DNA of 64,000 nt from Bacteroidia bacterium Ga0077558. GTDB taxonomy: Bacteria > Bacteroidota > Bacteroidia > Chitinophagales > Chitinophagaceae. The stretch is from NCBI GenBank assembly GCA_001464625.1, contig LNFJ01000094.1, positions 22,215 to 86,214 on the forward strand, given 5' to 3'. Under the pieces are notes generated by a model. The model did not search any database. It was not told the DNA's origin and saw only the letters and a list, made by a program, of their open reading frames with translations. Within the stretch, counting starts at the first letter, position 1; each line of letters starts with the position of its first letter. Below are positions 8,377 to 62,757 of this stretch, one piece after another. Position numbers and translations under genes: made by a program.

Positions 8377-8400
8377 TGGTAATTTGTTAGCTGGAGAAAG

Positions 8401-43990: not shown

Positions 43991-44012
43991 AATTGACACT
44001 ATAAATAAGAAA

Positions 44013-44510
44013 ATGAGAAAATATATTATAGCAGTAGCAGGTTTGTTTTTGTGTTCCGTTTCCTTTTCTCAGGATATGACAAAATTCAAACTCTATAATC
44101 CTGAAGCCAATGCCAAAAAGGATATTGAAGCAACAGCAAAAGAAGCAAAGGGTGCCGGGAAACATGTAATGATTCAAATTGGTGGTAACTGGTGTGTATG
44201 GTGTGCAAGATTCAATGATTTCGTAACGAAAGATGCATCGCTTGATTCCTTAGCGAAAGCCAACTATGTGGCCTATCATCTTAATTATAGCAAAGAAAAT
44301 AAGAATCTTGAATTATTGTCGAAGTACGATTTTCCGCAACGCTTTGGCTTTCCTGTTTTTTTAGTGTTGAATGAAAAGGGTGATCTGTTACATACACAAA
44401 CCTCCTGGTATCTGGAAGCAGGAAAAGGATATGATAAAGAAAAAGTAACGGCATTCTTTAATGACTGGAGTAAGAAAGCATTTGACCCTGCACAATACAA
44501 AGAAGAATAA
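44013..44510 (+). CDS. thioredoxin-fold protein (secreted)
   Basis: The start is placed at MRKYIIAVAGLFLCSVSFSQ. It has a CxxC motif GGNWCVWCARF in a thioredoxin-like context. Confidence 0.75.
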   Translation: MRKYIIAVAGLFLCSVSFSQDMTKFKLYNPEANAKKDIEATAKEAKGAGKHVMIQIGGNWCVWCARFNDFVTKDASLDSLAKANYVAYHLNYSKENKNLELLSKYDFPQRFGFPVFLVLNEKGDLLHTQTSWYLEAGKGYDKEKVTAFFNDWSKKAFDPAQYKEE

Positions 44511-47187: not shown

Positions 47188-50100
47188 TTACCAAACAACC
47201 CAGTTAAATTCTATATTCTCTCTTCTTGAAACAGGTCGTTGTTTGCCTTTCGTTAATTCGCTAACCTTTTTACTAACATAGTTTTTTAACTCTGCTACAT
47301 CCACCCTTCTGTCAGCATTGCCACCATCCCTATCAGCCATCACTTCTTCTATTCCTTTTCGAATGCAATAAGTAAATACGCCATTGTTCCATTTTTCAGA
47401 TTCAAAAGCATATTCCATTCCACCGGCAGCAGAAATGACAATAGCACCATTACCTGCTGAAATATCTGCAAATAAATTTTGCATAACCTCATAAGAACTG
47501 TTAGCATCTACAGCTGCTTTTTTATCTTTTACAATAAGCCCTCTTGATGCAAATCCTGATACGGAGCCATTATCCGTAGCCGTATCTTTTATAGTCGTTA
47601 TCTTGTTTTGTTGCGCAAGCATCTCTTCCTTATCTAATGCACCGGAATGGCAAGCATCAATTAGCAATAATTTCTTTCTTGCAGGTATTCCATCCAGTAA
47701 GGCTTCCAGGTCTTCATACTTCAAACCTTTTTGAGTTGGCTTTTTAAAATCAATATCATACGTAGCATAATAAAAATCAAGACTATCGCTTAGTAAGCCA
47801 TGTCCATTTACGGAAATAATTACTTTGTCATTAACGGTCGTCTTCATTAATTTTTCCCGGAGAGCTAATATGTTTTCTTTAGTTGCACGACTATCAATCA
47901 ATGTATCTGCTTCAAAATTTGATTTAAATATTTTTCCGAAAGATGTAGCGAGGTCCCGAACATCTTTGGCCGCAAACCGAAGATTCATCGATGTGTCTTT
48001 ATAATTGGAAACAGCGATTCCAATAAAATAAGTTTTGGCAGGAGTGGGAGGTTTGTAGCTGCTGCTAATTTCTATTGTTTCTGTTAGGGAGATGGCACCT
48101 TTACTATTGGTGCAAAACACTTTCACTAGATTTTTATCTGTAGAAAGGGGCACTTTTACTTTCAGTGTAGTTCTATTTGCATTGCTTGAAATGACTTTTC
48201 CTGCTGTTCCAAAAACAGGGCTGTTATTTACCAAAACCTGTAGTGATTGCAGCGGATATTTTGCATCATAACATTCTATCTCCATTTCATACTCACTTAA
48301 TGATGTTGCGGGTTTTACTGTAAACCGATCTTTTAATCTAACAACGGGCAAATGAACATCATCACCTAATGAGCTTTCAGTAATATCCAGCTTCTTCAAT
48401 CTTTTTTTGTACGCAGCATAATAGGAAGTGATGAGGCTGCTATCTGCTCTGCCAAGTTGCTTCAATACTAGATCAGGCCTGTTAAAACGGGTATCAAACT
48501 GTTCAAAACCGTAACTGTTATTATTCAAATTGAACGTCACGGCATCTAAGGTATTTTTTGGAGCCAGGTAATTGCCTTTACTATCAGCGATCATAAAATC
48601 TTTGCCTCTGGGAGTAAAAATGGTTGCTATTTTATTGCCAGTAGCTAAATCATACATATTCACTTTACAATCAAAGCCACCGGTTGCTAAAGTTTTATTA
48701 TTATGGCTAATTGCCATCATCCCATTTTCATAGTCATGGTCGTACTTTTCGTAAAGCACTTTATCTGTTTTCGTATCGAGTGTAACAAACTTGTCGGCAA
48801 TTTGAACTACGAGATAGCGGTAGTCGTATGACATTACTGAGTTATAACAAAGCTTTTTGTCCTTATATACTTTTATTTTTTTCAATAATTTTAGCGTAGT
48901 CGCATCATATTTATATACTGCCCCATCTCCGCCAGGAACATAAATAAACTTTGGTGTTATTTCGAGTGTCAAAGCATCTTCTGTCATAATACTGTCCAGA
49001 ATATTTCCGTTTTTTACATCAATTATTACTATCCTGTTCAATATCTCTCTTGCAAAAAGTCTTTGCCGTATACTATCATACCTAAGTGCAGAATATCCTT
49101 TCAAAATTTTATTTTTACTTTTATTATAAACATGGCTAAATATTTTTTTATAAGTTGCCAGTTCAAACCCTGCAATCGTTCCGTTATCGCCTCCTAAAAA
49201 CACATATCGATTATCCGCTGACAATTCGAAATGGGTAAGCTTCTCCGTAGCATCGGGTAAGCTAACCTTGCCAACAAATTCTTTTTTTGTATAGTCGTAA
49301 AATTTAAGCGAAGGAAGCTCTGTATCTGTGTAAATCCCTATATTTTCATTATTAAGCAGTATATAATTATTTTGAAACGACAACGCACCGAAGTATAGGA
49401 ACGATGTGCTTCCATTTTTTAAATTCACTTTTGATACTCCGTCATGAACAATTGCCAGCTCATTGTCGTCTTTTGTAAATTGAATATTTAGCGGAAGAGT
49501 ATAATATGTTTTTATATCCTTATGGCTTAGAGAAGAATTAGATTCAAAATCCCAATTCGAAAAATTAAAAATGCGAATGGGGCCTCCATCAGCTAGTCGT
49601 CCCGCTAAGTAGTTGCCATCCGGGCTAAATTTAACATCAAAAAGTCCATAGCCATCAGCAGAGCTATATAGATAATTTCTTTCTTTTAAGGTTGCCAAGT
49701 TAATAATGCATAGACTATCGGCACCTAATGCTAGTGCAAGTGTTTTACTATCGGCACTAAATGAAGGTGTGGCATAAGTGCCCCAGGAGCCGTTGCTTTT
49801 TGCATGCGCTTTAATTCTAAAATATCTTTTTTTGTTTTCCAGGTCCCATACATTCACCAAGCTATCGGAAGTAAGACTGCACATATATTTTCCATTGTTG
49901 CTAACCCAAACACCTATTACCCTACTTCTTTCTTTGTACCGCCGGTCCCAGTCTCCTGTTTCTAAGTCCCATTTATATACCAAACTGTCAGATCCACATG
50001 AAAAAAGCACCGTACTATTTGCAGGCGAAAAGGCAAGCCCGGTTATGGAGGCATTGTGTACTTGCAGTAAAGTTTTTGCAATTGCACCAGTACTTATGTC

Positions 50101-51942
50101 GTAAAATTTAATTAATGAATCTCTTCCTCCGGCTACTAGTTGTTTACTATCCGGCGTAAATATTACAGCCATCTCTGGCCGCCTTGTATTTATTGTTTTA
50201 ATCAAAGAGTAATCATATGCATTCCATATTTTTATTGTGGAGTCGTAGGAAGAGCTTACCAGGTAACGTCCATTTGGACTATATTGTAAAGCATAAATAT
50301 CACTTGTGTGGGCCGTAAAAGTTGAAATTTCTCTACCCAATGTCACATCCCATATCTTAATAAATTTATCATAGATCCCACCAGTAGCCATAAATCTGGA
50401 GTTGGGCGAAATAGCAATGATATAAGGAAACAAATGTCCCGTTTGAACGGATACTTTTATTTGTTCACTGCTGCGGAGATTAGCAATAGCACTGATTGCC
50501 CATCCTTCGCCTTCTTTATTGCCTGATTGTATAAACTGTGCCAGCGATTTTTTGAAAGAACTATCAGCTTTTTTATAATTACCTAATTTTTTTTCGGTAA
50601 AGCCGGTAAGATAATTTGCCCATCCTTCATTCAGTTTATCATTTAAAGCAAAGCTGGCATCCTGAATCAACTGTGCCATGTATTGTGCAGAGTCTATATT
50701 GTCTGCATTTGCCATCAGCATACCTTCATTGAACCATCTTACAATAAGTTCGTTATCGGTAATATCTTTTGATAAATTTCCTGCCAATTTTTTTCTGATT
50801 ATAGAAGTTGGTTGTTTAATAAGAAAGGAACTAACCACTGCAGGATCCATAGGTGTATTATTAATAACCCAGGTGGCGTAAACTTCAGAAAATTTATAGG
50901 GTGTTCCCATATACTTTCTCGGAAATGCATTTACGAAATCTAAAAAGAGTTTTAAATGGTCATCTGTGCTATTGGCCATTGCCTTTATGATATTTTCTCC
51001 GGCAAAAATTCCTTTACTTCCTTTTACTTCTGCATAGCCACCGCCTGCAACAGTATCTTCTGCTAATATCCTTACCGCTTCATCAATCTGATTTTTCATT
51101 ATGCGGGCAATATCATTATTGGTAAGACTATCTGCATAGTAATACAAGTAGCGGGAATTATAAATCGGTTCCCGATAATTGTTTTGAAAATAAATTAAAC
51201 GATTTGCAGAAACACTAATAGCAAGATTTTTCCAGCTAACAGGTACTCTTGTTTTCAATTCAACCAAATCTCCGGGCAAAACTTGCAGTAAAGAATCATT
51301 AGTAGCATGTGCTATCGTGTAATTATTACCAACTTCCCTTGGATAACAGTTAACCAGTCCGTAGGGTCGTTGAACATCTTTTGATTCCCATTTTGAAATG
51401 ATGCCGCCTCTTTTTACCGAATCGGTAATTCCATCATATTTACCGGCTTGTATGGTAATACGAATTGAATCAGCAGAAATTACTTCCACTTTAGTGACCG
51501 GGTAAAAGATAGAGGTTTCTTCTGTTGCTGCAATTGCAGGATAGTTGAATAGCTGATTGTTAATACTGATGGAACGATGCAAATCATTTAATTCTATAAA
51601 AGCAGTTTCAATATCGATATCTATTCTGTTTGCACGGGACTGGCGTAGGGCAAAACTTAAAAATCGATGTGTATTTTCAGGATCTTCTTTTTTTTTGTAA
51701 CACCTTCCAATATTCAACATTACTTGTGCAGATAAAATATTGGTATAATTTTCCTGTTTGTTATTGCGAATCCATTGTAAAGCTCTAAGATTAATAACAA
51801 GCGATGAATCATAATTTTTAACAGCGTAAAAAGAATCAGCTTGAGAAACAAGGGAGTCCAGGTGTTTATATTCTTGTGCAGCGGCTTTTGGCAACAAAGC
51901 TGGCAGAAAAAGTAAGAAAATTATAAATCTGCCAATATGCAT
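47188..51942 (-). CDS. secreted multidomain protein: TPR-like N-terminus + WD40-type repeats + Ig-like linker + C-terminal caspase-like (C14) peptidase
   Basis: 1584 aa with signal peptide MHIGRFIIFLLFLPALLPKAAAQ. WD40-type units include FMATGGIYDKFIKIWDV, LVSSSYDSTIKIWNA and LVAGGRDSLIKFYDI. C14 blocks are YFIGIAVSNYKD, VIISVNGHG and LLLIDACHSG. Confidence 0.85.
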   Translation of the reverse strand: MHIGRFIIFLLFLPALLPKAAAQEYKHLDSLVSQADSFYAVKNYDSSLVINLRALQWIRNNKQENYTNILSAQVMLNIGRCYKKKEDPENTHRFLSFALRQSRANRIDIDIETAFIELNDLHRSISINNQLFNYPAIAATEETSIFYPVTKVEVISADSIRITIQAGKYDGITDSVKRGGIISKWESKDVQRPYGLVNCYPREVGNNYTIAHATNDSLLQVLPGDLVELKTRVPVSWKNLAISVSANRLIYFQNNYREPIYNSRYLYYYADSLTNNDIARIMKNQIDEAVRILAEDTVAGGGYAEVKGSKGIFAGENIIKAMANSTDDHLKLFLDFVNAFPRKYMGTPYKFSEVYATWVINNTPMDPAVVSSFLIKQPTSIIRKKLAGNLSKDITDNELIVRWFNEGMLMANADNIDSAQYMAQLIQDASFALNDKLNEGWANYLTGFTEKKLGNYKKADSSFKKSLAQFIQSGNKEGEGWAISAIANLRSSEQIKVSVQTGHLFPYIIAISPNSRFMATGGIYDKFIKIWDVTLGREISTFTAHTSDIYALQYSPNGRYLVSSSYDSTIKIWNAYDYSLIKTINTRRPEMAVIFTPDSKQLVAGGRDSLIKFYDISTGAIAKTLLQVHNASITGLAFSPANSTVLFSCGSDSLVYKWDLETGDWDRRYKERSRVIGVWVSNNGKYMCSLTSDSLVNVWDLENKKRYFRIKAHAKSNGSWGTYATPSFSADSKTLALALGADSLCIINLATLKERNYLYSSADGYGLFDVKFSPDGNYLAGRLADGGPIRIFNFSNWDFESNSSLSHKDIKTYYTLPLNIQFTKDDNELAIVHDGVSKVNLKNGSTSFLYFGALSFQNNYILLNNENIGIYTDTELPSLKFYDYTKKEFVGKVSLPDATEKLTHFELSADNRYVFLGGDNGTIAGFELATYKKIFSHVYNKSKNKILKGYSALRYDSIRQRLFAREILNRIVIIDVKNGNILDSIMTEDALTLEITPKFIYVPGGDGAVYKYDATTLKLLKKIKVYKDKKLCYNSVMSYDYRYLVVQIADKFVTLDTKTDKVLYEKYDHDYENGMMAISHNNKTLATGGFDCKVNMYDLATGNKIATIFTPRGKDFMIADSKGNYLAPKNTLDAVTFNLNNNSYGFEQFDTRFNRPDLVLKQLGRADSSLITSYYAAYKKRLKKLDITESSLGDDVHLPVVRLKDRFTVKPATSLSEYEMEIECYDAKYPLQSLQVLVNNSPVFGTAGKVISSNANRTTLKVKVPLSTDKNLVKVFCTNSKGAISLTETIEISSSYKPPTPAKTYFIGIAVSNYKDTSMNLRFAAKDVRDLATSFGKIFKSNFEADTLIDSRATKENILALREKLMKTTVNDKVIISVNGHGLLSDSLDFYYATYDIDFKKPTQKGLKYEDLEALLDGIPARKKLLLIDACHSGALDKEEMLAQQNKITTIKDTATDNGSVSGFASRGLIVKDKKAAVDANSSYEVMQNLFADISAGNGAIVISAAGGMEYAFESEKWNNGVFTYCIRKGIEEVMADRDGGNADRRVDVAELKNYVSKKVSELTKGKQRPVSRRENIEFNWVVW
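47191..48036 (-). other. caspase-like (peptidase C14) catalytic domain of the 1584-aa protein
   Basis: This is the last 282 residues. The His codon is at 47800-47802 and the Cys codon at 47650-47652; both were checked on the DNA. Confidence 0.8.
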
Positions 51943-52033: not shown

Positions 52034-55000
52034 TCATTTTAACGTTTCTGTGGCTTTGTCAACTACAGACTTTGTAAGCTGATTCAATTTGTCTTTAGTG
52101 CCGCTTATTTCGAACTTAGTTTTTATAGCTTTATTTTGCTTCACATTTACAGTTATTGTAATGCCGTCTCCTTTTACAGTATAACGTCCACTTAAGGAAT
52201 AGGCATCAGGAGAATTAGTAGCAGTTACATATACAATTTTGCTATCTGATCCCCTTGTTGCCAATTCATTTAATTGGAGATTAACCATTCTGCTAAATTC
52301 CAAATCATCATCGGCAATAGCCTCATCGCTATTTTGAAAATTACTGGCAGCGAACAATGGTTTCTCTTGTGGCAAAATAATTTTAGCCATTACTTCCTCA
52401 TCAACCACCCCGATATTAAAATTGGTATTGGTAACAACTTGTGGTTCCTGTCTTGCACCATTTTCTTTTGAGAGCTCTGTCACTGTTTTTTCAGCGGCAT
52501 TAAACCAGCGGCTTACATTCAGGTATTTGCCATCTTCTAATATATCCGGTTGTTGCTTAATTGCTTTTAGTAAAGAATAGGTAAGTAGACCCTGCGAATA
52601 TCTCCCCATCTCATAGGCACTTTGATTACTTGCCGAAGCGGAGAGTATAAACAAACCAGATTTTTCATTTAGTTTATCTATTGCTTTTACCTGTTGCGCT
52701 GCATCATCATCTCTCGCTGCCATATAATTTTGCTCATCAGCACCCATTTTTACAAAATCTTTAATGGCTTGTCCACTATTGCAAGCATCAAATATTAGAA
52801 TACGTTTTTGAGCTTTTATATTTTGTGGCTTCATCCATTCGGTAAGTTCTGCCGTGCTGATGCCAACATCGGCAACCGCACTGCCAGCAGTTAAAGATGA
52901 AGCATCTGCGGTTAGAAAATAAAATTGCTTTTGTTCCCCTTCCATTACCCCATGACCTGCAAAGAATATCAGCAGAATATCATTGGCAGTAGCCTTTTTG
53001 CCTATTTCTTCCAGCGTTTTTTTGATACTGTTCTTTTCAGGTAGCTGGTATCTTTCTTTAGCGGTGGTGAGATTATACATAAACACATGTTCTTTATTAT
53101 CTGTGTTTAATAATTTTTTAGCTGCATTGGAAACCGCAGCAGAAATATCAGTAGCATCTTTAGCGGCATATTTCAGATCCAGTTCGTCTCCTTTGTAATC
53201 GCTTACGCCAACCATTACTGCATACAAGTTAGGTGGAGTAGTAGCCTGACTGCTTTTATCTTCTTTTACTTTAAATCCACGGGAGGATATTGTATTGTCT
53301 GTTGTAAATGCTTTTACTGTTACCTGGTTTTCTACACCAGCAATAAAATAAGGGCTGAGTTCAGTTTTTCTTATAATCAACTCATAGATGTTACCATTCA
53401 TTTTTAATTGTGCAGGCTTATATGTTTTGGTAGGATTTCCATTAATGGAAAGAATTGTTTCTCCCAATCCTCCGCGGCGGGGAATTATTTTAAAATAGTA
53501 TTCATCTGCTTTGCTGCTGGCATCTTCAATTTCAGGTGTAAGGCCACAAATACTTAACTGCTCTAATGTTTTTGCATTAATGCTATCGCCACTGGTAATC
53601 CTTTCAATTAGATTAGGAACCCACAATTGATTTTTTGCCTGGTCCAATTCTATCACTTCTTCTCCGCAAACAAAATAGAGCATTTTACGGGCAGCTTCAG
53701 TTCCATCATACCGTCCAAAATTATCTTGTACTAAAAAATCTGTATTGCCAGTAACAAAATGTTTGTAAGCCAATTTTACCTGGGGTAGTGTGTACACTTC
53801 CAATGCGTCATCAGTAAACACATAGAGATATTTGCCAGATTTTCCATATGTAATTTCATTGCCTTTAAGTTTTAGTACCGTTGCTCCTGATAATAAGTTG
53901 TGTATTCTAATATTGTCGCCAGAATGTACCACCAGGATTTCATTACTTACAAAATGAAACTCTATGCCTTTTCCTGGTTCATTGAGTTTTGTAACAATAG
54001 TTTCCTCAACATTGACTATAGGTGTTGTCACAATTTTCCCATTCGCATATATTAGTTTCAGTTCGTTTTTATTGGCTGTAAAACCAGCATAATTTATATC
54101 ACTCAAGGTTGTAACCAATTTTCCTGAAACTGTTTCCCAAACCTGCAAAAGTGATTCGTTGTTATCAAAACATAGGAAATATTTTGAGTCGGAGCTCATT
54201 TCTATGGTATGCGGATAAGCTGTTCCCACGGTAACGGATTGAATTAGCTCTTGAGTGGCTACCGACCAGATTTTTACTTTATTACTTCCTCCCGTAATAA
54301 TATACGCACCATCAGGACTGAACCGTTGTTCCGTAAACATGCTAATACTATCAATAGTCAACAACCGTTTATTGTCAGACAATCGAACAAGCTGCACTGT
54401 AAAATTATCATCGTGTAAAACATATTTTCCATTGGGGCTAAACTTGCTGAATGATTCATATGATCCTGATGCATCGCTTAGTGTTGTTTCATCACCCCCT
54501 TCTGCATTAAAAACAACACTACTGGCTCTTCCGCCTGCTACTACAAAAAGGCTATCATTAGCACTAAAATCTACACTGGTGGCCCACTGATTATTAAATA
54601 GTTTTTTGTGAAAAACAATTTTGCCAGTAGCTGCTTCCATTTTTCGTACTACACCATCTCTTGAAGCAGTCAAAATGTATTTTTCATCTTTAGAAAGTTG
54701 CAGCGCAGCGAGCCGTTCATTATGTGAACCATAAGTCAGTTCTTTTTTTCCTGTTGTGGCATTCCAACGGCTTAAAACAGGGTCGTAGTTTCCGGCAAGA
54801 ATGCTGTTGCTTTTTTTAAGATAGTTTAGAAAAAAGAGAGATTCATTTCCTGATTGGAAATAGAAAGCCAATTTATATGTATCAATATCCCAAACACTGC
54901 AATACCCACTTTTATCTGCAAGAGCAAAAGTTTTTTTGTCGGGAGAAACTCGTATTTTATAGATCCAGTCTTTATGGTTTTCTATAGCGCCAACAAAGTT

Positions 55001-55819
55001 GCCAGTCTGTTTATTCCATATCCTCGCAGAATTATCGCTGGATGAAGAAATTATATTACCATCGGGAAGAAATTTTGCATTCCAAACAGTATTCGTATGG
55101 CCGCTATACTCCACTAATTGTTTGCCGGTTGCAGTTTCCCAAAGCCTGGCTGTAGAATCATCTGCTGCAGTTAGTAATTCAATATCATTATCGGAAAATT
55201 CTACATCAATTACCCGGCTTCGATGGCCTGCGAGGGAAGCTGAAAATTTTCTTTGTTCTATGTCCCAAAGTTTTATGGTAGCACCTCCATACAAAGCAAG
55301 CATTTTACTATTGTTGCTAAACTTTAGTTCGTCATTAAAATAAGTCTGTGCAATGGTATCGGCTAATTGTAGAGTAATGGCGTTATATATTCTTATACTA
55401 GATCCACCTTTTTCGCCATAATATTGACCACAAATCGCAATCCATTTACCGTCTGTACTTACAGCAAGTCCCGGAGAGAAATCATAGGTCCCTAAAATTG
55501 TTGATTTGCCTGTTCCAATATTGTAGACTTCTGCAGGCGTAAAACCTGTAATAACAAGGTTCTTATTATCTGCAGTAAAGGCCATTTCGGTGGGATTACC
55601 ACGATTAAGGCTTGCTAATAATTTTCCGGTTGCCGTTTCCCATATTTTAATTTTTCCATCCAAATCACCCGAAGCAATTAATTTTTCATTTGGACTTATG
55701 GCAACAGCTTTAATCTCATTGCCATTAGCACTGGGGAGTATCAACTCGGGTTGTTGTGCCAATAAATGAGATATACAAAGCACACTACAAACCAGGGAAA
55801 TTAACTTGAAACCTCGCAT
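52034..55819 (-). CDS. secreted multidomain protein: WD40-type repeats + Ig-like linker + caspase-like (C14) peptidase + C-terminal beta-rich extension
   Basis: The start is placed at the ATG giving MRGFKLISLVCSVLCISHLLAQQ; the listed ORF start at 55864 is a TTG inside the promoter-like unit. WD40-type units include LIASGDLDGKIKIWETATGK, LLTAADDSTARLWETATGK and IISSSSDNSARIWNKQTG. C14 blocks are LYAVMVGVSDYKG, LLIFFAGHG and ILIFDACNSG. Confidence 0.85.
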   Translation of the reverse strand: MRGFKLISLVCSVLCISHLLAQQPELILPSANGNEIKAVAISPNEKLIASGDLDGKIKIWETATGKLLASLNRGNPTEMAFTADNKNLVITGFTPAEVYNIGTGKSTILGTYDFSPGLAVSTDGKWIAICGQYYGEKGGSSIRIYNAITLQLADTIAQTYFNDELKFSNNSKMLALYGGATIKLWDIEQRKFSASLAGHRSRVIDVEFSDNDIELLTAADDSTARLWETATGKQLVEYSGHTNTVWNAKFLPDGNIISSSSDNSARIWNKQTGNFVGAIENHKDWIYKIRVSPDKKTFALADKSGYCSVWDIDTYKLAFYFQSGNESLFFLNYLKKSNSILAGNYDPVLSRWNATTGKKELTYGSHNERLAALQLSKDEKYILTASRDGVVRKMEAATGKIVFHKKLFNNQWATSVDFSANDSLFVVAGGRASSVVFNAEGGDETTLSDASGSYESFSKFSPNGKYVLHDDNFTVQLVRLSDNKRLLTIDSISMFTEQRFSPDGAYIITGGSNKVKIWSVATQELIQSVTVGTAYPHTIEMSSDSKYFLCFDNNESLLQVWETVSGKLVTTLSDINYAGFTANKNELKLIYANGKIVTTPIVNVEETIVTKLNEPGKGIEFHFVSNEILVVHSGDNIRIHNLLSGATVLKLKGNEITYGKSGKYLYVFTDDALEVYTLPQVKLAYKHFVTGNTDFLVQDNFGRYDGTEAARKMLYFVCGEEVIELDQAKNQLWVPNLIERITSGDSINAKTLEQLSICGLTPEIEDASSKADEYYFKIIPRRGGLGETILSINGNPTKTYKPAQLKMNGNIYELIIRKTELSPYFIAGVENQVTVKAFTTDNTISSRGFKVKEDKSSQATTPPNLYAVMVGVSDYKGDELDLKYAAKDATDISAAVSNAAKKLLNTDNKEHVFMYNLTTAKERYQLPEKNSIKKTLEEIGKKATANDILLIFFAGHGVMEGEQKQFYFLTADASSLTAGSAVADVGISTAELTEWMKPQNIKAQKRILIFDACNSGQAIKDFVKMGADEQNYMAARDDDAAQQVKAIDKLNEKSGLFILSASASNQSAYEMGRYSQGLLTYSLLKAIKQQPDILEDGKYLNVSRWFNAAEKTVTELSKENGARQEPQVVTNTNFNIGVVDEEVMAKIILPQEKPLFAASNFQNSDEAIADDDLEFSRMVNLQLNELATRGSDSKIVYVTATNSPDAYSLSGRYTVKGDGITITVNVKQNKAIKTKFEISGTKDKLNQLTKSVVDKATETLK
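52421..53230 (-). other. caspase-like (peptidase C14) catalytic domain of the WD40-caspase protein
   Basis: The His codon is at 52952-52954 and the Cys codon at 52781-52783, both checked on the DNA. A further ~120-aa unassigned C-terminal domain is encoded at about 52037-52390. Confidence 0.8.
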
Positions 55820-55833
55820 CAGCAAATTTTTTG

Positions 55834-55880
55834 AAAAATTACCACTATTAGCATGCTTTTCCAATACCGTATGCAGGGTA
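55834..55880 (-). promoter_or_regulatory. promoter-like unit B (TACC-N8-GGTATTGG-N19-TAATTTTT)
   Basis: The minus strand reads TACCCTGCATACGGTATTGG aaaagcatgctaatagtgg TAATTTTT, ending 15 nt before the ATG at 55819. Units A and C have the same geometry. Confidence 0.55.
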
Positions 55881-55907
55881 CTTTAAAATTTGGACTACAG
55901 GGGGCAC

Positions 55908-55938
55908 AAAAAAACCGGCTATATTAGCCGGTTTTTTT
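55908..55938. terminator. bidirectional Rho-independent terminator after the small Tyr/Trp/Cys-tail gene
   Basis: aaaaaaaccggct / agccggttttttt: a perfect stem with a 5-nt loop, flanked by A and T runs. Confidence 0.8.
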
Positions 55939-55947
55939 GTAATTCGA

Positions 55948-56331
55948 TTAACAGTAGTACCAATATTTGTACCAGTAGCAATAGCCATAGCCATCGCAAT
56001 AGTAATACCAATAGTAGCAAAGTCCGGCACGGGATGCTTCCGGAGCTTTATACTTTTTTTGAAAAGCTTTTACTGCAGCAGCAAGTGATTTTGCATTAGC
56101 AGCTGTCAATGTTTGACCGGCTTTGTAAGTTGTTCCGCCAACTGTAGCTTCAGGAGAACCGCCACGGTTTGCGTCAAGACTCGCATTAGATACCATGCTT
56201 AAAAAGCCGATATCGCTGTCAGTTAAAGTTGTGCCTGCCTTCATAGCAGATACTGTTTTTTCTGCCTGGCCAAATACTACTGATGCCATCAGCAGCAAAG
56301 AGGCCGAGAATAAGAGTTTAATCTTTTTCAT
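55948..56331 (-). CDS. small secreted protein with extreme Tyr/Trp/Cys-rich C-terminal tail
   Basis: 127 aa with signal peptide MKKIKLLFSASLLLMASVVFGQA. The tail LCYYWYYYCDGYGYCYWYKYWYYC was verified codon by codon at 55951-56019. The gene has its own terminator and an upstream promoter-like unit. Confidence 0.6.
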   Translation of the reverse strand: MKKIKLLFSASLLLMASVVFGQAEKTVSAMKAGTTLTDSDIGFLSMVSNASLDANRGGSPEATVGGTTYKAGQTLTAANAKSLAAAVKAFQKKYKAPEASRAGLCYYWYYYCDGYGYCYWYKYWYYC

Positions 56332-56526
56332 TGTTGTTTTTTGTAGGTGATGAAATTTGATGGTTTTTAAATATATGCTTTTTTAGCAGATAAAAAATTG
56401 GACTGTTTATTCAAACAGGTTATTAAAAAGTAAATTTATTTGTCTTATCCGATCTTACCAATACTCTATTTTGAGTAGTCGCTTTAACTGTTTGGGTAAA
56501 GTTTTTCTATTTCATTTATTCTTACA

Positions 56527-56593: not shown

Positions 56594-58828
56594 TTATTTT
56601 TCTTTTGTAGGGATGAAAATAAATTCACTAAAGGCGTCTGTATTTCCAAAATCGGCCATATGAGGCGATATTTTTAGGGTAGCGGTTTCATTGAGGCTGG
56701 CGGTCTGCAATACAGCATTAATATCGCCCAATGTAACAATACCGTTGGAACCTTCACCTTTTGCCCGTAGCACCTGTAACAGAAGGTTGGCAAACGGCGA
56801 ATGGCGGCCAGCTTTACCATCAAATGCAGGTTCGCTGCCGACAGAGGATAAAAATTTTCGGGTACGGAGCGGTAATTTATCTTTTAAAAACTGCAGCACA
56901 TTTTTATTATTTATATTGGTAGTGGTTGTTTCCCTTTTTGCATTGTCAAAAGCTTTGGCATCAAAAGTGCCGCCGTGGCAAACATCCAGCAACACCAGTA
57001 CCTGCCTGGCTGGAATATTATTCAGCATTTTTTGCAGCTTGGCATAGGGGATATAGGTGTTACGAACCGGGTCGTCATCAATTGACCGGGAGTCTGTACA
57101 AACTATAAAACCATCATCCAGCAATTCATTATCCACATCACCGTGGCCAGCAAAATAAACCACCAGTTGATCATTAGGTTGTGCAATACGATAGTATTCC
57201 CTGATGGCCTTATAAATACTGTCCATGGGTTTGTCTTCTAATAATTGTACATCAAAGCCGTAGGAGTTGGATAATTCATCAGCTACTGCACGGGCATCTT
57301 TTATAGGGTTGCTGAGTTTATTCCATCCTTTGCCTTTATAATTATCGGTACCTACAACAAGGGCATATTTTTTGGCGGTCAGATTAGTTAATGTTTGCTG
57401 AAGTTCCTTTGGTTTTACCTTCATTCCTCTAGTGTCACTCTCTCCATCACCAAATATTTCTTTGTAATCCTGCAAAAATTTTTTCTCAAAGAAAATATCA
57501 AAATAGTCGTAGGGGAACGACTTGCAGGTATATTCTTTATCTTTTATAGAGAAAGCTATTTTTGCTGCCTTGCTATCATCTCGGAATATATCATAAATGT
57601 TGTACGTGGTATCCAATGAAGTTATATAATAATTAATAGGACCTTTCCTGATGGTTTCTCCATTACACCCTACAGCATCCATCCCAATACGATTGGGGAA
57701 AATGATAATACGGTTTTTGTTGAGAAGACTTGCAACAGTAGGAGAGTTTCTCATTAATGTTTTTACAAACTCAGTTTTAAACTTTTCTTCAGTACCAGTT
57801 TCGGAAATAAAGAGTTGATTATTAGCAGGTATAATCTGGATGTACTCTTGGAGGACGTTTATTGAAATAAGATCATGGTTAATTTCCTCAATAAGATCTT
57901 TATGCTTACTGCTATTTCCAAAGAGTTCTCTTTTGTAGCCTTTTTTTTGGTAGGGGAAAAAATAGGTAACCTTGTTACTGCTTGAGTCGAGCACAAGAGG
58001 AAAACTATGGCCGTTATAATTCAGAATAAAATAATCATTTGCCGAAGATTTAGCGGCGATCTCCTTTAACGCATTAATAATTTTTTCTTTTGTGGCACCA
58101 CTATCAAGCAATGTATATTCATTATATAAAGTTTCGGAAATCTCATTACCAACCACTTTATCTAGCTGCTCTTTAAAAAAAGTTGAATAGGACTGGGCAT
58201 CGGACTTGCAGTTTGTCAAATACATAAGGGCGCCTGAATATTTATCAATACCAATTGATAATACCCAAACTGAACCGATGGAGTATTTATTTCTGTCTGA
58301 GGCATTGTATACTTGGTTAAGTCTTAGCAATGATGATAGTGATCTATTGGGAACATTCGATTCTTTAATTTTTTGCCCATAATTAAGGATAAATTTATCG
58401 ATTACCTTCTTAGAATCATAAGTGACAATTTTCATCAGGGTGTTGTTAAGAACATAAGCCTGATCGGTAAGTTGAAATTCATTATCAAACTGCCATACGC
58501 TATCAATTGAAATAGTGTTTTTGAAAATCAACCTGTATGCTTTTACTCCACCCCTTGTAGAGTCTATAAAGCCTTTCAAGTTGATTATAGTATCATTTTT
58601 TATAAATTTTTCCATCCATTTAGCGGACGAATAATACATGCCAGTACCAACAATATAAATTTGGGAAGGGTTGTGTTTTTTTAATGTTTCCGGATATTGA
58701 TGTGCTGCCAACACATAAGTTGTAGGTCTTAGAACACCAGGATTTCCTAAAGAATAATTACTGAAAAACAACCCGTTAACCAGTAATATGGCAACCACAA
58801 GGTTCGCTTTACAAATATGTAAATTCAT
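56594..58828 (-). CDS. secreted protein with degenerate caspase-like module followed by an intact caspase-like (C14) peptidase domain
   Basis: 744 aa with a hydrophobic leader. The C-terminal C14 blocks are YALVVGTDNYKG, LVVYFAGHG and VLVLLDVCHGG. The upstream module has WVLSIGIDKYSG and FILNYNGHS, but reads LFISETGTEE where the Cys block is expected. Confidence 0.8.
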   Translation of the reverse strand: MNLHICKANLVVAILLVNGLFFSNYSLGNPGVLRPTTYVLAAHQYPETLKKHNPSQIYIVGTGMYYSSAKWMEKFIKNDTIINLKGFIDSTRGGVKAYRLIFKNTISIDSVWQFDNEFQLTDQAYVLNNTLMKIVTYDSKKVIDKFILNYGQKIKESNVPNRSLSSLLRLNQVYNASDRNKYSIGSVWVLSIGIDKYSGALMYLTNCKSDAQSYSTFFKEQLDKVVGNEISETLYNEYTLLDSGATKEKIINALKEIAAKSSANDYFILNYNGHSFPLVLDSSSNKVTYFFPYQKKGYKRELFGNSSKHKDLIEEINHDLISINVLQEYIQIIPANNQLFISETGTEEKFKTEFVKTLMRNSPTVASLLNKNRIIIFPNRIGMDAVGCNGETIRKGPINYYITSLDTTYNIYDIFRDDSKAAKIAFSIKDKEYTCKSFPYDYFDIFFEKKFLQDYKEIFGDGESDTRGMKVKPKELQQTLTNLTAKKYALVVGTDNYKGKGWNKLSNPIKDARAVADELSNSYGFDVQLLEDKPMDSIYKAIREYYRIAQPNDQLVVYFAGHGDVDNELLDDGFIVCTDSRSIDDDPVRNTYIPYAKLQKMLNNIPARQVLVLLDVCHGGTFDAKAFDNAKRETTTTNINNKNVLQFLKDKLPLRTRKFLSSVGSEPAFDGKAGRHSPFANLLLQVLRAKGEGSNGIVTLGDINAVLQTASLNETATLKISPHMADFGNTDAFSEFIFIPTKEK
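56597..57373 (-). other. intact caspase-like (C14) domain of the 744-aa protein
   Basis: The His codon is at 57143-57145 and the Cys codon at 56978-56980, both checked on the DNA. Confidence 0.8.
57629..58273 (-). other. degenerate caspase-like module (catalytic Cys apparently lost)
   Basis: Residues ~186-400 show the same block order as a C14 domain (IGIDKYSG ... NYNGHS ... hydrophobic strand). There is no Cys at the position aligned by eye. Confidence 0.45.
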
Positions 58829-58921: not shown

Positions 58922-58986
58922 GCTATAATAAAAAGGTTCAGGCAACTTCTTTTGGCCGTATAATGTCTGAGAAAGGTATTTTAATA

Positions 58987-61449
58987 ATGAAACGGAATAG
59001 CATTTTCATATTATTGTTTTTATTGGGCTGTTTTTTGCAGGCCATGGCACAGCCTGATGAACGGGGTTTTAAAAAAGCAGGCGATACCGCAACAGCAAAG
59101 GGTAATGTATATGCTATTATCGTAGGCATCAGCGATTATAAATTGGTACCCGATCTACAGTATGCAGATAAAGATGCACAATCATTTGAAAGTTTTCTAC
59201 TGAGTGATGGCGGCGGCAAAGTGCCGGCCACCAATATTGAAACGTTTTTGAATGAAAATGCAACCCGTACCAATGTGGGAGATGCCATTTCGGTATTGGC
59301 CCGTAGGGCCAAACCTGGCGACAGGGTGTATTTCTTTTTTGCCGGGCATGGTGATATGGAAGATCTGACTCAAATTGAAAATGGATTGTTACTATTACAC
59401 AATAGTCCCAATGGAAATTATTTTGGTATGAATGATGATGTGCTGGAAATTTTAGATCTAAAAAGATATTTATCTCCATTAGCACAGCGGGGAGTTGAAA
59501 TGATATTTATTGTGGATGCCTGCCACTCCGGGAATTTAAAAGGTGGGGTAGAAGGAGTGTCACAAACAGCATCTGCCCTTACCGCTGCTTGGGGCAAAGA
59601 GTATAAAATTCTTTCTTGCCAACCCAATCAGCTTTCCCTGGAGAGCTCCGAGTGGGGTGGAGGCAGAGGCCTTTTTTCGTTGCAACTGGAAGAAGGATTG
59701 AAAGGCCTAGCAGATATGGATAATAATGGAACGGTTAGCATGTTTGAATTACAGAGCTATATTCAATCCAATGTGGCAAAATATAGCGAGGGAAAACAAA
59801 TTCCCTTAGTTACCGGCGATTTAAGTAAACCAATTTGTAAAGTTAACCCTACCATACTTGCAGCACTAAAATTAGAAAAGGCTAAGAATTATCCCATACT
59901 TGCATCTGCTAATACAAAGGGTAATGATGATAAATATGTTGATTCGCTGGACCCTGCCGGGAAGAAATTATATGCGTCTTTTAAAAATAATATTGCCGAA
60001 AAAAGGTTGGTCGCACCAACAGATACCAATGCATTCAGGGATTATCGTTTGTTTGAAAAAAGCTATCCGGCCAGTCCGCTTGTAGTACAGATGCGGCGCA
60101 ACCTCGCTGCCGTATTAAATGAGAAGTTTAATGGCATTGTATCTCCTTTATTAAAAGGACAAAGAAGCTATTCTTCAAGGGAAGAATGCGGATTGGTGGC
60201 AGTCGAACTGGATAGTTCGATGCAATTACTCGGTAGCCAGCATTATATGTACACCAACATTAAAGCCCGCAAATTATTCATGGATGCGATGGCTCTTACC
60301 TGGGCCTTATCGGAGAATGAATATAATATCTATATGAAGCCTGCGGTAGAAACATCAATCAAGTTGTTGGAACAATCGGAACTATTGGAGCCGAATGCAG
60401 CTTATACTTTGGATGCATTAGGCATTCGTTATATATTCTTGTATGAGAATGATAAAGCAACAAAAGCTTTTCAAAAATACCTTGATCTGCGGCCCAATGA
60501 TTTAATGGCTCGTTATACCTTGGGTATTACTTATACAAACTTAAAAATGTATGATAATGCAGAAAAAATATTTGAAGAGCTTTTGAAAGAAAATCCGGGA
60601 TGGCTGGAGCTAGGAGTAAAATTGTCAGATGTTTATCTTAACAACAAAAAGTCTAAAAACGCATTAGCTATTATCAATACAATTATCGATACCTCTACTT
60701 TATATAAGGGGAATGGATATTTTTTTAAAGGAGTGTACTATTCCAGGAATAGTATGACGGACAGTGCCATCTACTATTACAATCTTGCTAAAAAGGAAAT
60801 GGGGGCTTGTGATATTTGCGATAATAACATCGGGCATAATTATTTTGTGAATAACCAGTTGGACTCTGCCAGGAAATATTTCAAAAAACTTTTGGAGATT
60901 GATAGCCTGAATGTGTTTGCCAATTTTAATATGGGTACCATTGAAGTATTGGAAGGTGATATAACTAAAGCTTTTCAGTCATTCGTTAAATCGGCCGTAT
61001 ATGCACCTGCATTTCTGGAAGGTTATGTAAATAATCTTCAACTATATTTTGGTAAAACATATACAGCAACAGACGAAAAGGAGTTTAAACAATTTAAAGA
61101 AATACAGTATATTTTTAATATGCAGTACTTGTCCTACTTATCTATCTTGTATGGATATATTCGGGATTCTGCATTGTTGTATAAAGGAACCGGGGTGCAG
61201 TATTTTTTTGATCAGGCCTTTGTTTATAAACAACATGATTTGTACACATGGTATCATCATGCCTGTTACAAATCGCTAATAAAAGAAAAGCAGGCTGCAT
61301 TGGCAAGTTTGGAAAATGCGTTACGTCTTGGCTATGGAAATTATTTTACACTTCTATATGATGCGGATCTTTCATTTATTCGCAATACTCCGGAGTTTAA
61401 AAAACTCATCCAGAAATATTTCCCCAAAGAATCTGCTGCTGCTAATTAA
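58987..61449 (+). CDS. secreted caspase-like (C14) peptidase fused to C-terminal TPR repeats
   Basis: The start is placed at MKRNSIFILLFLLGCFLQAMAQ; an upstream ATG at 58963 is also possible. C14 blocks are VYAIIVGISDYK, VYFFFAGHG and IFIVDACHSG. TPR-like 34-mers run from about residue 430 to 720, e.g. AFQKYLDLRPNDLMARYTLGITYTNLKMYDNAEKIFEELLKENP. Confidence 0.85.
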   Translation: MKRNSIFILLFLLGCFLQAMAQPDERGFKKAGDTATAKGNVYAIIVGISDYKLVPDLQYADKDAQSFESFLLSDGGGKVPATNIETFLNENATRTNVGDAISVLARRAKPGDRVYFFFAGHGDMEDLTQIENGLLLLHNSPNGNYFGMNDDVLEILDLKRYLSPLAQRGVEMIFIVDACHSGNLKGGVEGVSQTASALTAAWGKEYKILSCQPNQLSLESSEWGGGRGLFSLQLEEGLKGLADMDNNGTVSMFELQSYIQSNVAKYSEGKQIPLVTGDLSKPICKVNPTILAALKLEKAKNYPILASANTKGNDDKYVDSLDPAGKKLYASFKNNIAEKRLVAPTDTNAFRDYRLFEKSYPASPLVVQMRRNLAAVLNEKFNGIVSPLLKGQRSYSSREECGLVAVELDSSMQLLGSQHYMYTNIKARKLFMDAMALTWALSENEYNIYMKPAVETSIKLLEQSELLEPNAAYTLDALGIRYIFLYENDKATKAFQKYLDLRPNDLMARYTLGITYTNLKMYDNAEKIFEELLKENPGWLELGVKLSDVYLNNKKSKNALAIINTIIDTSTLYKGNGYFFKGVYYSRNSMTDSAIYYYNLAKKEMGACDICDNNIGHNYFVNNQLDSARKYFKKLLEIDSLNVFANFNMGTIEVLEGDITKAFQSFVKSAVYAPAFLEGYVNNLQLYFGKTYTATDEKEFKQFKEIQYIFNMQYLSYLSILYGYIRDSALLYKGTGVQYFFDQAFVYKQHDLYTWYHHACYKSLIKEKQAALASLENALRLGYGNYFTLLYDADLSFIRNTPEFKKLIQKYFPKESAAAN
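59104..59832 (+). other. caspase-like (C14) catalytic domain of the caspase-TPR protein
   Basis: The His codon is at 59347-59349 and the Cys codon at 59521-59523, both checked on the DNA. Confidence 0.8.
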
Positions 61450-61562
61450 AAGTAGCTTAGCACCTTGCTAATAATTTCATTAAGGTTTATTTAACTGCGT
61501 CACAAGTGTAATTTCGGTTACAACAGTATCTTCTTGTGTATAAACACACCAAAAGCACTGTT

Positions 61563-62096
61563 ATGAAACGTTATACTTCTCTTCTTATAGTATTTTTACT
61601 TTCTTATTCAATAAGCTTCGCAGATGAAATTGCCTTTGAAAAAAATGCCAGCTGGGCAGATGTAAAAGCCAAGGCTAAACGGGAGAACAAAATGATATTT
61701 TTTGATGCCTATACTGCCTGGTGTGGCCCTTGTAAATACCTGGAAAAAAATGTGTATACAGATGCAGGCGTAGCTGCTTATTACAACCAATACTATATAA
61801 GCGTAAAGTTTGATATGGAAAGGGGAGAAGGTATAGAGTTGGCTAAAGAATTTTCTATTGACTCATACCCTACATTATTATTTTTTACTGCAGATGGCAA
61901 ACTGGTTCATAAATATATAGGAGCAACTGATGTGGCAGGGTTTAAAAGCCTTGGTGAAAATGCGGCAGATCCTTCTAAACAATATATAGTAATGAAGGAG
62001 CAGGCTGCCAGTTTAGCATTAGCTGATGCTGCATTTACCAAATGGGCATTCCAGGCAGAAAGGTTACAAGATGGGAGATATAGGGAAAATCATTAG
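61563..62096 (+). CDS. thioredoxin-fold protein (secreted), possibly the N-terminal part of a frameshifted longer gene
   Basis: The start is placed at MKRYTSLLIVFLLSYSISFA. The motif is FFDAYTAWCGPCKYLE (CGPC). The ORF ends in a helical segment that continues in the +1 frame (see findings). Confidence 0.75.
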   Translation: MKRYTSLLIVFLLSYSISFADEIAFEKNASWADVKAKAKRENKMIFFDAYTAWCGPCKYLEKNVYTDAGVAAYYNQYYISVKFDMERGEGIELAKEFSIDSYPTLLFFTADGKLVHKYIGATDVAGFKSLGENAADPSKQYIVMKEQAASLALADAAFTKWAFQAERLQDGRYRENH

Positions 62097-62757
62097 GACA
62101 TACTTAGCAGGAAAGGATGATCTTCTTGCCAATAGAGATGTAGCTATTACCGCATTGTTGCAGGCGCCAGAACTTACCGACACTCAGTTGAATTATTTAA
62201 TAAATAATCCTGCCCGAATCGGCGAATTGTTGAAGCTTGATGCCCCGCAAACCGCTTCTTTGTTATACAAAAGAATTTTTAACCAGGCAATGACTGTTTA
62301 CCAAAGAAGCGGCCAGCAAGTAGATTCTTTTGCCATAGTTATACAAAAATATGCTCCTGCAAATTGTGAGTATGCAATGAAAGATATGTTGTTTAAAGAA
62401 GCTTTGCGGGCCGATAAAGATATAAATAAGGCAACTGCTTTATTAATAGAATATATTGATGATAAGAAAGCTCCCGTAGACATTGCAGCAATAGCTGGTT
62501 GGTTTGAGGAATTATCGGCAGTGATTGATAAAGAAAATTCACAACGGTTAATTAATAAGCTTACCAGTTTTGTATTACAGGAAAGTGATAAAGGAAAAGA
62601 ATGCTATCTGTTCCTTATTCAAATGAGTTGCTATAATACTATTGGCGACAAGGCTCAGGCAAAAACGTATGCTTTGAAAGCTTATCATGCTAAAGAATTG
62701 CCAGAAGAATATAAGGAAATGCTTAAAGCAACATGGGGCTTTACTGATTCTCAATAA
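62071..62757 (+). CDS. helical (TPR-like?) protein, or the C-terminal part of the upstream thioredoxin-fold gene
   Basis: The ORF is open from 62026 and the first plausible ATG is at 62071 (MGDIGKIIRTYLAGKDD). It overlaps the upstream ORF by 26 nt in a different frame. Composition is all-helical. Confidence 0.5.
   Translation: MGDIGKIIRTYLAGKDDLLANRDVAITALLQAPELTDTQLNYLINNPARIGELLKLDAPQTASLLYKRIFNQAMTVYQRSGQQVDSFAIVIQKYAPANCEYAMKDMLFKEALRADKDINKATALLIEYIDDKKAPVDIAAIAGWFEELSAVIDKENSQRLINKLTSFVLQESDKGKECYLFLIQMSCYNTIGDKAQAKTYALKAYHAKELPEEYKEMLKATWGFTDSQ

Follow-up and report, generated by a model that had tools for sequence, protein, structure and literature searches.

The stretch analysed here is a window of 64,000 nucleotides from Bacteroidia bacterium Ga0077558 (Chitinophagaceae; assembly GCA_001464625.1, contig LNFJ01000094.1, positions 22,215 to 86,214). 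At 55948..56331 on the minus strand (-) it carries a gene for a small, probably exported protein that ends in a tail of tyrosine, tryptophan and cysteine, and that lies between genes for caspase-like peptidases of family C14. We propose that this protein is probably a dedicated partner of the clustered, exported caspase-like proteases. According to the list of open reading frames (ORFs) and its translation, the gene encodes 127 amino acids (aa), MKKIKLLFSASLLLMASVVFGQAEKTVSAMKAGTTLTDSDIGFLSMVSNASLDANRGGSPEATVGGTTYKAGQTLTAANAKSLAAAVKAFQKKYKAPEASRAGLCYYWYYYCDGYGYCYWYKYWYYC, beginning with MKKIKLLFSASLLLMASVVFGQAEKTV and ending with FQKKYKAPEASRAGLCYYWYYYCDGYGYCYWYKYWYYC before a stop codon at 55948-55950. 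The last 23 residues (105-127, CYYWYYYCDGYGYCYWYKYWYYC, encoded at 55951..56019 (-)) comprise 12 Tyr, 3 Trp, 4 Cys, 2 Gly, 1 Asp and 1 Lys. An earlier reading, made from the letters alone (the sequence-only reading), had described this ORF and the composition of its tail, and both agree with the ORF list and translation.

The ORF is a genuine gene under strong selection, and the tail is its most constrained part. The sequence-only reading had looked for support to homology searches for ORFs with a signal peptide and such a tail, and to codon-level conservation, and both provide it. A search of 5.8 billion proteins returned 132 relatives with 53-99% identity, nearly all of them 126-130 aa long; the named close relatives come from Chitinophagaceae metagenome-assembled genomes (MAGs). 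Among 185,579 species genomes, with one genome per species, 45 loci were found, all in Chitinophagaceae, Chitinophagales or Bacteroidota, and the closest species-level matches (97%) are Chitinophagaceae bacterium IBVUCB2 and two MAGs. A profile search of 1.84 billion representatives added 59 distant 50%-identity clusters (E <= 1e-3). Their members are 120-175 aa long and match end to end, except, among the weakest of the 59, for a handful of truncated fragments and a pair of long repeat proteins. Scans of metagenome contigs were not used: a distant sub-alignment gave no confirmed locus there, and the distant member P0165 gave two weak matches of 28-29% with no clear ORF.

In an alignment of 108 close sequences, Q22, E24, G33, F43, L44, V47, Y94 and R101 are invariant, as are C105, Y109, Y110, C112, G116, C118, Y121 and C127 of the tail. 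Conservation reaches at least 90% at 16 of the 23 tail positions, and the variation that remains consists almost solely of Tyr/Trp exchanges. Beneath identical residues, seven loci show many swaps between TAT and TAC and between TGT and TGC. Across 44 distinct genes, the proportion of nonsynonymous differences (pN, Nei-Gojobori) is 0.059 in the tail, 0.194 in the linker, 0.243 in the signal peptide and 0.272 in the N-terminal domain (N-domain), with synonymous sites saturated in all four. The sequence-only reading had itself allowed that the ORF or its tail might not be conserved in relatives, or that the region might be non-coding low-complexity sequence. Tail and frame are conserved in the 132 close homologues, and codon-level purifying selection supports the coding frame. 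A chance ORF over low-complexity TA-rich DNA, for which only the unusual composition speaks, has practically no probability left. It is refuted by homologues, with length, frame and residues kept in about 190 proteins, by the synonymous-only variation of the tail, and by confident AlphaFold2 models.

The gene is equipped with a terminator of its own and probably also with a promoter. Just past the stop codon, at 55905..55941 (-), an A-run, a GC-rich stem (CCGGCUA/UAGCCGG) and a U-run form an intrinsic terminator that is potentially bidirectional. The folded RNA is a hairpin of 17 pairs with an energy of -23 kcal/mol (z -8.5), and none of 200 shuffled sequences was as stable. A simple terminator and promoter scan found nothing there; direct folding revealed the structure, and so bore out the strong terminator described in the sequence-only reading. 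The promoter scan found no sigma-70 type site. Upstream, 36 nt from the ATG, a possible Bacteroidota -7 element, TATATTTA (56368..56375 (-)), can be read from the sequence with low confidence, on what we take to be the consensus, TAnnTTTG.

Anatomy of the small protein

Residues 1-21, MKKIKLLFSASLLLMASVVFG (56269..56331 (-)), form a predicted Sec signal peptide with readable n, h and c regions, and the protein is probably Sec-exported, with the periplasm as its probable compartment. The sequence-only reading had recognised this convincing signal peptide and placed the cleavage after A23. The first part holds, and the second gives way to a cut between G21 and Q22, since Q22 is invariant. F20 is at least 90% conserved in the 108 close sequences, and the Gln is nearly invariant in the wider family. 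Under the Q-rule for Bacteroidetes signal peptidase I substrates, a Gln stands right after the cleavage site (PMC5837995, PMC10653852), as it does at the predicted site. Cleavage between G21 and Q22, with conversion of Q22 to an N-terminal pyroglutamate, is therefore likely, and would leave a mature protein of 106 aa (Q22-C127). Exported proteins of Bacteroidetes can also carry the O-glycosylation motif D-(S/T)-(A/I/L/V/M/T); it was not found at conserved positions of this family.

The N-domain is an internal duplication, its two repeats aligning with an hhalign probability of 92% (E 5.5e-7) around the beta-turn-helix unit x-(F/Y)-x-x-G-x-x-L-(S/T)-x-x-D-x-x-x-L. Repeat 1 (residues 24-57, 56161..56262 (-)) ends in a first conserved Arg-Gly, N-R56-G57 (56161-56166), of which both residues are at least 90% conserved in the close family and invariant in the distant set. 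AlphaFold2 gives this repeat a strand at 23-26 and helices at 38-47 and 52-56. Repeat 2 and the basic linker that follows (residues 61-103, 56023..56151 (-)) contain R101 (56029-56031) in the motif A-S-R-A-G. Aligned globally, each half closes with s-R-G.

The Arg before the tail is conserved far beyond the close sequences in which R101 is invariant. Of 164 family members, 158 have an Arg 1-8 residues ahead of the first Cys of the tail, within the local motif x-(S/T/A/N)-R-(G/A/S), and between repeat 2 and this Arg lie anything from 29 to 45 or more residues. Since the Arg is fixed near the tail Cys while the linker N-terminal to it varies, it belongs to the tail junction and not to the repeat scaffold. 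The sequence-only reading had pointed to a basic stretch before the tail. Its KK/K residues (FQKKYK) are conserved only in the close subfamily, whereas R101, as S-R-G/A, is conserved family-wide.

Distant members share a common plan. A signal peptide ending in (F/Y)-(A/G)-Q is followed by a domain of about 80 aa, a variable linker rich in Lys, Ser and Pro, the motif (K/S/T)-(S/T/A)-R-G, and a Cys/Tyr/Trp tail of 20-28 aa with a turn (D/N)-x-(Y/W)-G-x. In two distant members (P0166 and P0173), a lipoprotein box, L-x-S-C, and a long acidic spacer replace the signal peptidase I site, which indicates that the module of domain plus hairpin can be membrane-tethered.

AlphaFold2 models of the window protein (pLDDT 85.1, pTM 0.74) and of a distant member with about 40% identity to it (P0144; pLDDT 85.8, pTM 0.78) have the same topology. 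In both, the order of elements is a strand, a helix, a strand hairpin, a long helix, a linker and a two-strand tail hairpin, the last with a pLDDT of 85-91. The tail of the window protein is predicted as a beta-hairpin of strands 104-112 and 118-126 around a turn, DGYGY, with the four invariant Cys. Read from the predicted register, one face would hold the three Trp, K122 and the C112-C118 pair, and the other would be a pure Tyr ladder; the pattern of disulfides is likewise inferred from the model.

The composition of the tail is as distinctive as its conservation. Across 120 tails, Tyr makes up 51.9% of residues, Cys 17.4%, Trp 12.6%, Lys 4.2% and Arg 0.1%. The window tail is about 65% Tyr and Trp, and its single Lys and single Asp give it a net charge of 0. 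Phe does not occur once among the 2755 residues of these tails; in the N-domain, Phe (2.6%) is about as frequent as Tyr (2.4%). This exclusion suggests selection for hydroxyl and indole groups, and not just for bulk hydrophobicity. It points to a chemistry that needs such groups, for example interfacial or glycan binding, cross-linking or redox activity.

Neither the protein nor its tail resembles a catalogued family. The window protein has no match in Pfam, NCBIfam, PADLOC or PHROGs, and 51 relatives searched against family libraries gave scattered single-member matches, none of them significant and none common to two members. A sequence profile search of the Protein Data Bank (PDB) found nothing below E 0.04. 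With Foldseek, neither AlphaFold2 model had a match in PDB or BFVD at E <= 0.001, the best values being 0.75-1.9. Full-text literature searches on the tail strings and on tyrosine-rich secreted Bacteroidota proteins found nothing relevant. The family lies mostly in Chitinophagales, and it appears to be undescribed, as do its tail motif and its link with clusters of exported C14 peptidases.

Several specific identities were considered and rejected. The sequence-only reading had seen neither a C-terminal domain (CTD) of the type IX secretion system (T9SS) nor any other known sorting signal in the tail, in agreement with the lack of Pfam and NCBIfam matches in the window protein and the 51 relatives. 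A T9SS CTD (PF18962, TIGR04131/TIGR04183) is a beta-sandwich of about 70-100 aa; there was no match, and the tail has only 23 aa. PEP-CTERM, GlyGly-CTERM and MYXO-CTERM tags gave no NCBIfam match, and the end YKYWYYC lacks a hydrophobic helix or an Arg/Lys cluster. LysM (PF01476) was considered for the repeats on account of a G-x-T-L...A-V-K-A-F-Q resemblance and gave no match. PG_binding_1 (PF01471) was reached by one of eight N-domains at E 0.1, with 13 bits against a cut-off of 23, and its hydrophobic spacing differs. Known periplasmic inhibitors (I38 AprI/Inh, I11 ecotin, I36) were matched neither by Pfam or NCBIfam nor by PDB sequence or Foldseek searches. A bacterial gasdermin was discarded for a protein of 127 aa with a signal peptide and no Pfam or PADLOC match, and a cationic antimicrobial hairpin for a tail that has a net charge of 0 where a strong positive charge is expected.

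Caspase genes and genomic context

As the sequence-only reading had stated, caspase genes flank the small gene on both sides. Upstream and co-directional lies the gene for an exported C14 protein of 744 aa (56594..58828 (-); Pfam Peptidase_C14, E 4e-30). Downstream, domains and motifs identify a WD40-repeat caspase in an ORF of 1276 aa (52034..55864 (-)), whose likely start is the Met at 55819, which gives a signal peptide MRGFKLISLVCSVLCISHLLAQ followed by Gln. Beyond these lie a second WD40-repeat caspase of 1584 aa (47188..51942 (-)), with a signal peptide ending …PKAAAQ and a DACHSG motif, and a divergent TPR-repeat caspase of 828 aa (58963..61449 (+)) with a signal peptide, FAGHG and DACHSG. 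All four score 50-106 bits against Peptidase C14 (PF00656), for which the cut-off is 21.4. The caspases carry intact catalytic motifs of the His/Cys dyad: all four have D-x-C-(H/N)-(S/G)-G, and in three of them (F/Y)-(A/S)-G-H-G was found. Each has a signal peptide followed by Gln, and no T9SS CTD was found in the four caspases or in the small protein. With signal peptides on the caspases and on the small protein, both partners would be periplasmic.

The active part of the 744-aa protein is a metacaspase-like C14 domain (residues 486-694) with the motifs FAGHG and DVCHGG, behind a signal-like N-terminus. Its best PDB relatives are yeast and Candida metacaspases (4f6o, from yeast, and 7qp0). 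Two Asp residues are conserved in the neighbours, one within the I-N-D-A motif and one two positions ahead of the catalytic Cys, and both may belong to an acidic S1 pocket such as that of the TbMCA2 structure. From their likeness to metacaspases, the neighbouring C14 peptidases are expected to prefer Arg or Lys at P1. The sequence-only reading had assigned Arg/Lys specificity to bacterial members of the family, and this fits exported, metacaspase-like proteins, since orthocaspases and metacaspases cut after basic residues (PMC6426788).

The N-terminal half of the 744-aa protein (residues 1-480, 57389-58828 (-)) is a degenerate caspase-like region with a weak Peptidase_C14 match (E 1e-4, residues 188-277). 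It keeps the His, in NYNGHS, and has ISETG in place of the catalytic D-x-C-H-S-G; the same half of an orthologue in locus L007 has no match at all. Compared with its nearest relatives (L007 7650-9818, L014 and L008), the protein is a mosaic: the C-terminal active domain is 95% identical and the N-terminal 480 residues 45-49%, while the small proteins of the same loci are 97% identical. A hypervariable N-terminal half beside a conserved catalytic part is what diversifying selection or cassette exchange would be expected to produce in a recognition or sensor domain.

To count contexts, small genes were placed with the family hidden Markov model (HMM) in 54 further loci besides the window, and caspase, thioredoxin and PspC genes with tblastn. 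Of the 55 distinct gene instances, 34 have a C14 gene no more than 5 kb away, and for 25 the distance is at most 400 bp. The 21 loci without caspase context, about 309 kb in all, hold a single C14 match. The sequence-only reading had named co-occurrence with C14 genes as a test of its proposal; such linkage is found, in many arrangements, though it is not obligatory.

The small gene and the caspases are found in at least eight different arrangements. In the window and many other loci, the small gene directly follows a 744-type caspase. In four loci it is on the other side of the TPR-caspase (L003, L021, L027 and L031), and in four others just upstream of a 678-type caspase (L043, L046, L047 and L033). 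In L045 it lies between a WD40-caspase and a caspase-DUF4384, directly downstream of the orthologue of the 1584-aa caspase. In a further four (L038, L042, L044 and L050) it is 2-4 kb from a TPR-caspase, with unrelated genes between. Orthologues of the TPR-caspase occur in nearly all cluster-type loci. The clustered C14 peptidases come as fusions with WD40, TPR, ankyrin or DUF4384 modules, often with a periplasmic CGPC thioredoxin and sometimes with a CHASE2 protein nearby.

Linkage to caspases extends to six of eight divergent subfamilies, down to 28% identity. The six are represented by L055, L056, L052, the pair L059/L060, the second paralogue of L004 together with L048, and the window's own clade. 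In L055, where the small protein (P0190) has 46% identity, the match to a caspase-DUF4384 ends 4 bp before the small ORF and a thioredoxin follows 155 bp downstream. In L052 the small gene (P0144, 40% identity) is divergent from a 678-type caspase 392 bp away. In L059 and L060 (P0207, 41%) the order is casp883, the small gene, a CHASE2 gene, a gene of 306 aa and a WD40 protein, with gaps of 204 and 19 bp on the two sides of the small gene. In L056, the most divergent of the caspase-linked loci, the small gene (P0165, 28%) is 3.9 kb from a WD40-caspase, with transposases between. Linkage that is kept at 28-46% identity and through rearrangement argues for a functional tie.

Twelve species present another context, in which the small gene lies about 150-400 bp downstream of genes for a PadR regulator and a PspC/LiaF-type toast-rack protein of 745 aa, with no caspase within 5 kb (L002, L005, L016, L018, L022-L025, L034, L037, L039 and L040). 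This arrangement hints at a tie to envelope-stress sensing. Loci in neither context include L011 and L035, which have unrelated or housekeeping genes around the small gene, as do L053 and L054, the loci of two other distant members.

A proposed periplasmic partnership and its rivals

How might such a partnership work? The proposal that we hold tentatively, at somewhat less than an even chance, is that the small protein is a dedicated periplasmic substrate of the caspases, cut after the conserved Arg. After export, periplasmic oxidoreductases would oxidise or shuffle the tail Cys to disulfides, stapling the hairpin. The co-clustered Arg/Lys-specific peptidases would cut the protein after R101, and possibly a second time after R56, the Arg-Gly between the repeats. 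With the cut, the aromatic hairpin, on which selection is strongest, would be split off or unmasked. Its Phe-free Tyr/Trp surface could then act as a hydrogen-bonding aromatic face towards the membrane interface, a glycan or the repeat domains of the peptidases themselves. The sequence-only reading had already suggested cleavage by the neighbouring C14 proteases at a basic site. Comparison lends this support, through the recurrent linkage and the conserved Arg, and moves the site from KK/K to R101.

Several observations weigh against this proposal, which itself draws on sequence comparison and predicted models. The compact models (pTM 0.74-0.78) suggest that the hairpin packs on the N-domain at a fixed position, so that cleavage might nick the protein and not release a peptide; the freely releasable tail peptide of the sequence-only reading thus loses ground. 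In the predicted hairpin C105 and C127 are two residues out of register, which makes the outer disulfide, and with it the disulfide map, uncertain. The first Arg-Gly is absent from several family members, and since each Arg-Gly motif stands at the end of a repeat when the halves are aligned globally, the two could be structural. With its own terminator and probable promoter, the small gene would not be co-transcribed with the caspases in the window. Moreover, 12 of the 55 instances directly follow the PadR-PspC genes and 9 are in neither context, so caspase adjacency is not obligatory, and part of the linkage must be inherited synteny.

The last of these points suits a protein that acts without proteolysis. 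An autonomous envelope protein, whose Tyr/Trp hairpin binds the membrane interface, peptidoglycan or another glycan, or itself, and which is found near caspases and PspC because these are envelope or stress loci, is possible but rather unlikely. The 21 instances away from caspases, the monocistronic gene with its own terminator and the compact model all speak for it. So do the two distant lipoproteins, which suggest a tethered envelope role, and the choice of Tyr and Trp, never Phe, for the tail. A preference for Tyr and Trp is typical of carbohydrate-binding platforms and of membrane-interface belts. This explanation nevertheless leaves the conserved pre-tail Arg, which matches the neighbours' expected specificity, without a role, and no likeness to LysM, PG_binding_1 or a carbohydrate-binding module was found. 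Further, inherited synteny poorly explains C14 linkage at 28-46% identity and the operon-like spacing in L055 and L059.

The same Arg residues might instead be bait. As a periplasmic pseudo-substrate inhibitor or regulator, the protein would present one or two Arg-Gly loops as P1 baits, being double-headed if both serve, and use the hairpin as an exosite or docking element, so that the peptidases stay silent until a trigger, in the manner of AprI/Inh and ecotin with other exported proteases. Inhibitors encoded beside their protease are an established pattern in the periplasm. A mature protein of 106 aa, made with a signal peptide and encoded beside exported proteases in many arrangements, would suit this role, as would a conserved Arg-Gly loop in each repeat and the compact, confident fold expected of a tight-binding inhibitor. 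AprI/Inh (I38) and ecotin are likewise small, have signal peptides, are found beside an exported protease and expose P1-type basic residues in loops; ecotin is reviewed in PMC9904509. We consider inhibition unlikely, however. The small protein shares neither sequence nor fold with these or any other inhibitor family, and its targets would be clan CD cysteine peptidases. The tail is more constrained than the Arg loops, of which the first is dispensable in several members and the one before the tail ends a variable linker in place of a rigid canonical loop. Copies also occur at loci with no protease nearby.

A secreted antimicrobial or bacteriocin precursor, akin to ribosomally synthesised and post-translationally modified peptides (RiPPs), with the N-domain as leader and the Cys/aromatic tail as core, is very improbable. 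The layout of leader, conserved junction and Cys-rich C-terminal core is suggestive, and the predicted stapled hairpin recalls tachyplesin and protegrin peptides. Like these, and like arenicin and designed tryptophan zippers, the tail is predicted to be a hairpin of two strands, about 23 residues long, with aromatic pairs across the strands, and it has four Cys; unlike them, it is not cationic, is part of a larger protein and has the Cys register C-x6-C-x5-C-x8-C. We reject this explanation because the N-terminus is a Sec signal peptide, whose F-G/A-Q junction is conserved, and not a double-glycine or RiPP leader, and because no maturase, ABC exporter or immunity gene recurs beside the small gene in the loci read. 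Such radical SAM genes as lie nearby are all of the housekeeping MiaB/RimO type (UPF0004). The tail is the most conserved part where hypervariability would be expected, its net charge is 0, and there is no outer-membrane export signal in the form of a T9SS CTD.

The substrate proposal can be carried a step further. The repeat or degenerate-caspase modules of the caspases vary sharply between near-identical strains, and these modules might be sensors that detect a periplasmic insult, whereupon the caspase cuts after R101 and the hairpin, a disulfide-stapled Tyr/Trp zipper now freed or unmasked, inserts at the membrane interface or polymerises. We regard such an envelope caspase effector as a long shot; if true, it would be a periplasmic counterpart of the caspase-gasdermin pair, and the first case of a C14 peptidase that matures a Sec-exported bacterial pro-peptide. 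In bacterial gasdermin systems, too, a caspase-family protease with TPR or WD40 modules is encoded beside a small protein, which it activates by removing a short C-terminal segment (10.1101/2021.06.07.447441). Gasdermins, however, are cytoplasmic, about 240-300 aa long and of another fold; here both partners have signal peptides, and the small protein, of 106 aa when mature, shows no gasdermin signature.

Other systems offer partial likenesses, and the small protein is a member of none of those compared, since their defining features of sequence and fold, where these could be compared, are absent from it. Eukaryotic pre-pro-peptides, such as conotoxins, defensins and RALF-type hormones, have a signal peptide, a pro-region, a basic junction and a module with a Cys framework, and in peptide hormones the C-terminal module is also the best conserved. 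Asparaginyl endopeptidases of clan CD release disulfide hairpins such as SFTI-1. The family described here differs in being bacterial, with a folded and duplicated N-domain that is predicted to pack against the hairpin, a product that would be about 65% aromatic, which is not known from those families, and no homology to these precursors. C-terminal sorting signals likewise place a conserved C-terminal element after a possible cleavage site, and PorU, which processes T9SS CTDs, belongs to clan CD. The tail differs from them in having no Por_Secre_tail match and no transmembrane helix or basic cluster, and in being 23 aa long against about 80 aa for a T9SS CTD.

In the literature searched, no physiological substrate or partner was found for exported bacterial caspase homologues. 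The family is a candidate for this role, with a predicted site at R101 and possibly at R56, and one that is experimentally tractable. A real partnership would represent a new periplasmic protease-effector module in Bacteroidota that are abundant in soil and water. Irrespective of its function, the tail is an aromatic hairpin of a kind unusual in nature, and as such of interest for protein design and peptide materials.

Further features of the caspase loci

The sequence-only reading had noted thioredoxin-fold genes at both ends of the region, and they are found at 43977-44510 and 61536-62757. The latter (61536..62757 (+)) is the gene for a periplasmic WCGPC thioredoxin whose C-terminal domain is helical, and in the window it is broken up into two overlapping ORFs (61536-62096 and 62026-62757). 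A frameshift, which would make it a pseudogene, or a sequencing error near 62030-62090 would account for the split; the protein is intact in L055 (395 aa) and L001 (394 aa). This thioredoxin is a recurrent member of the clusters: copies also occur in L001 and eight other loci (L007, L009, L014, L019, L021, L029, L032 and L048), and the copy in L055 directly follows the small gene.

CHASE2 extracytoplasmic sensor genes lie at 4446-6631 in L059 and at 10439-12588 in L060, and a homologue (104-1270) borders the cluster of L006. In cyanobacteria, CHASE2 genes are also found near CHAT-type caspase homologues and small secreted proteins. Both L056 and L059 have AbiE-type toxin-antitoxin genes at their flanks, and the interval between the WD40-caspase and the small gene of L056 (6682-9022) contains three transposase genes of the ISL3 and DDE_Tnp_1 types.

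One caspase cluster, L004 (on a contig shared with L036), contains two paralogues of the family, at 2421-2876 and 7965-8387. One has a short linker; the other, with a long linker (…NPGEKNPTRNTESARGGLCYYWYWYC…), lies between an ankyrin-caspase and a TPR-caspase. In L050, a beta/gamma-crystallin protein with a match to Peptidase inhibitor I36 (6101-6895 (-)) adjoins a TPR-caspase of 1161 aa, and could be another caspase-associated small protein. Lastly, the same MiaB/RimO-like radical SAM gene (UPF0004) is the neighbour of the small gene in the caspase-free locus L011 (6579-7886) and adjoins the caspase cluster in L045 (3865-5118). This shared neighbour suggests that caspases were lost from, or inserted into, a common neighbourhood.

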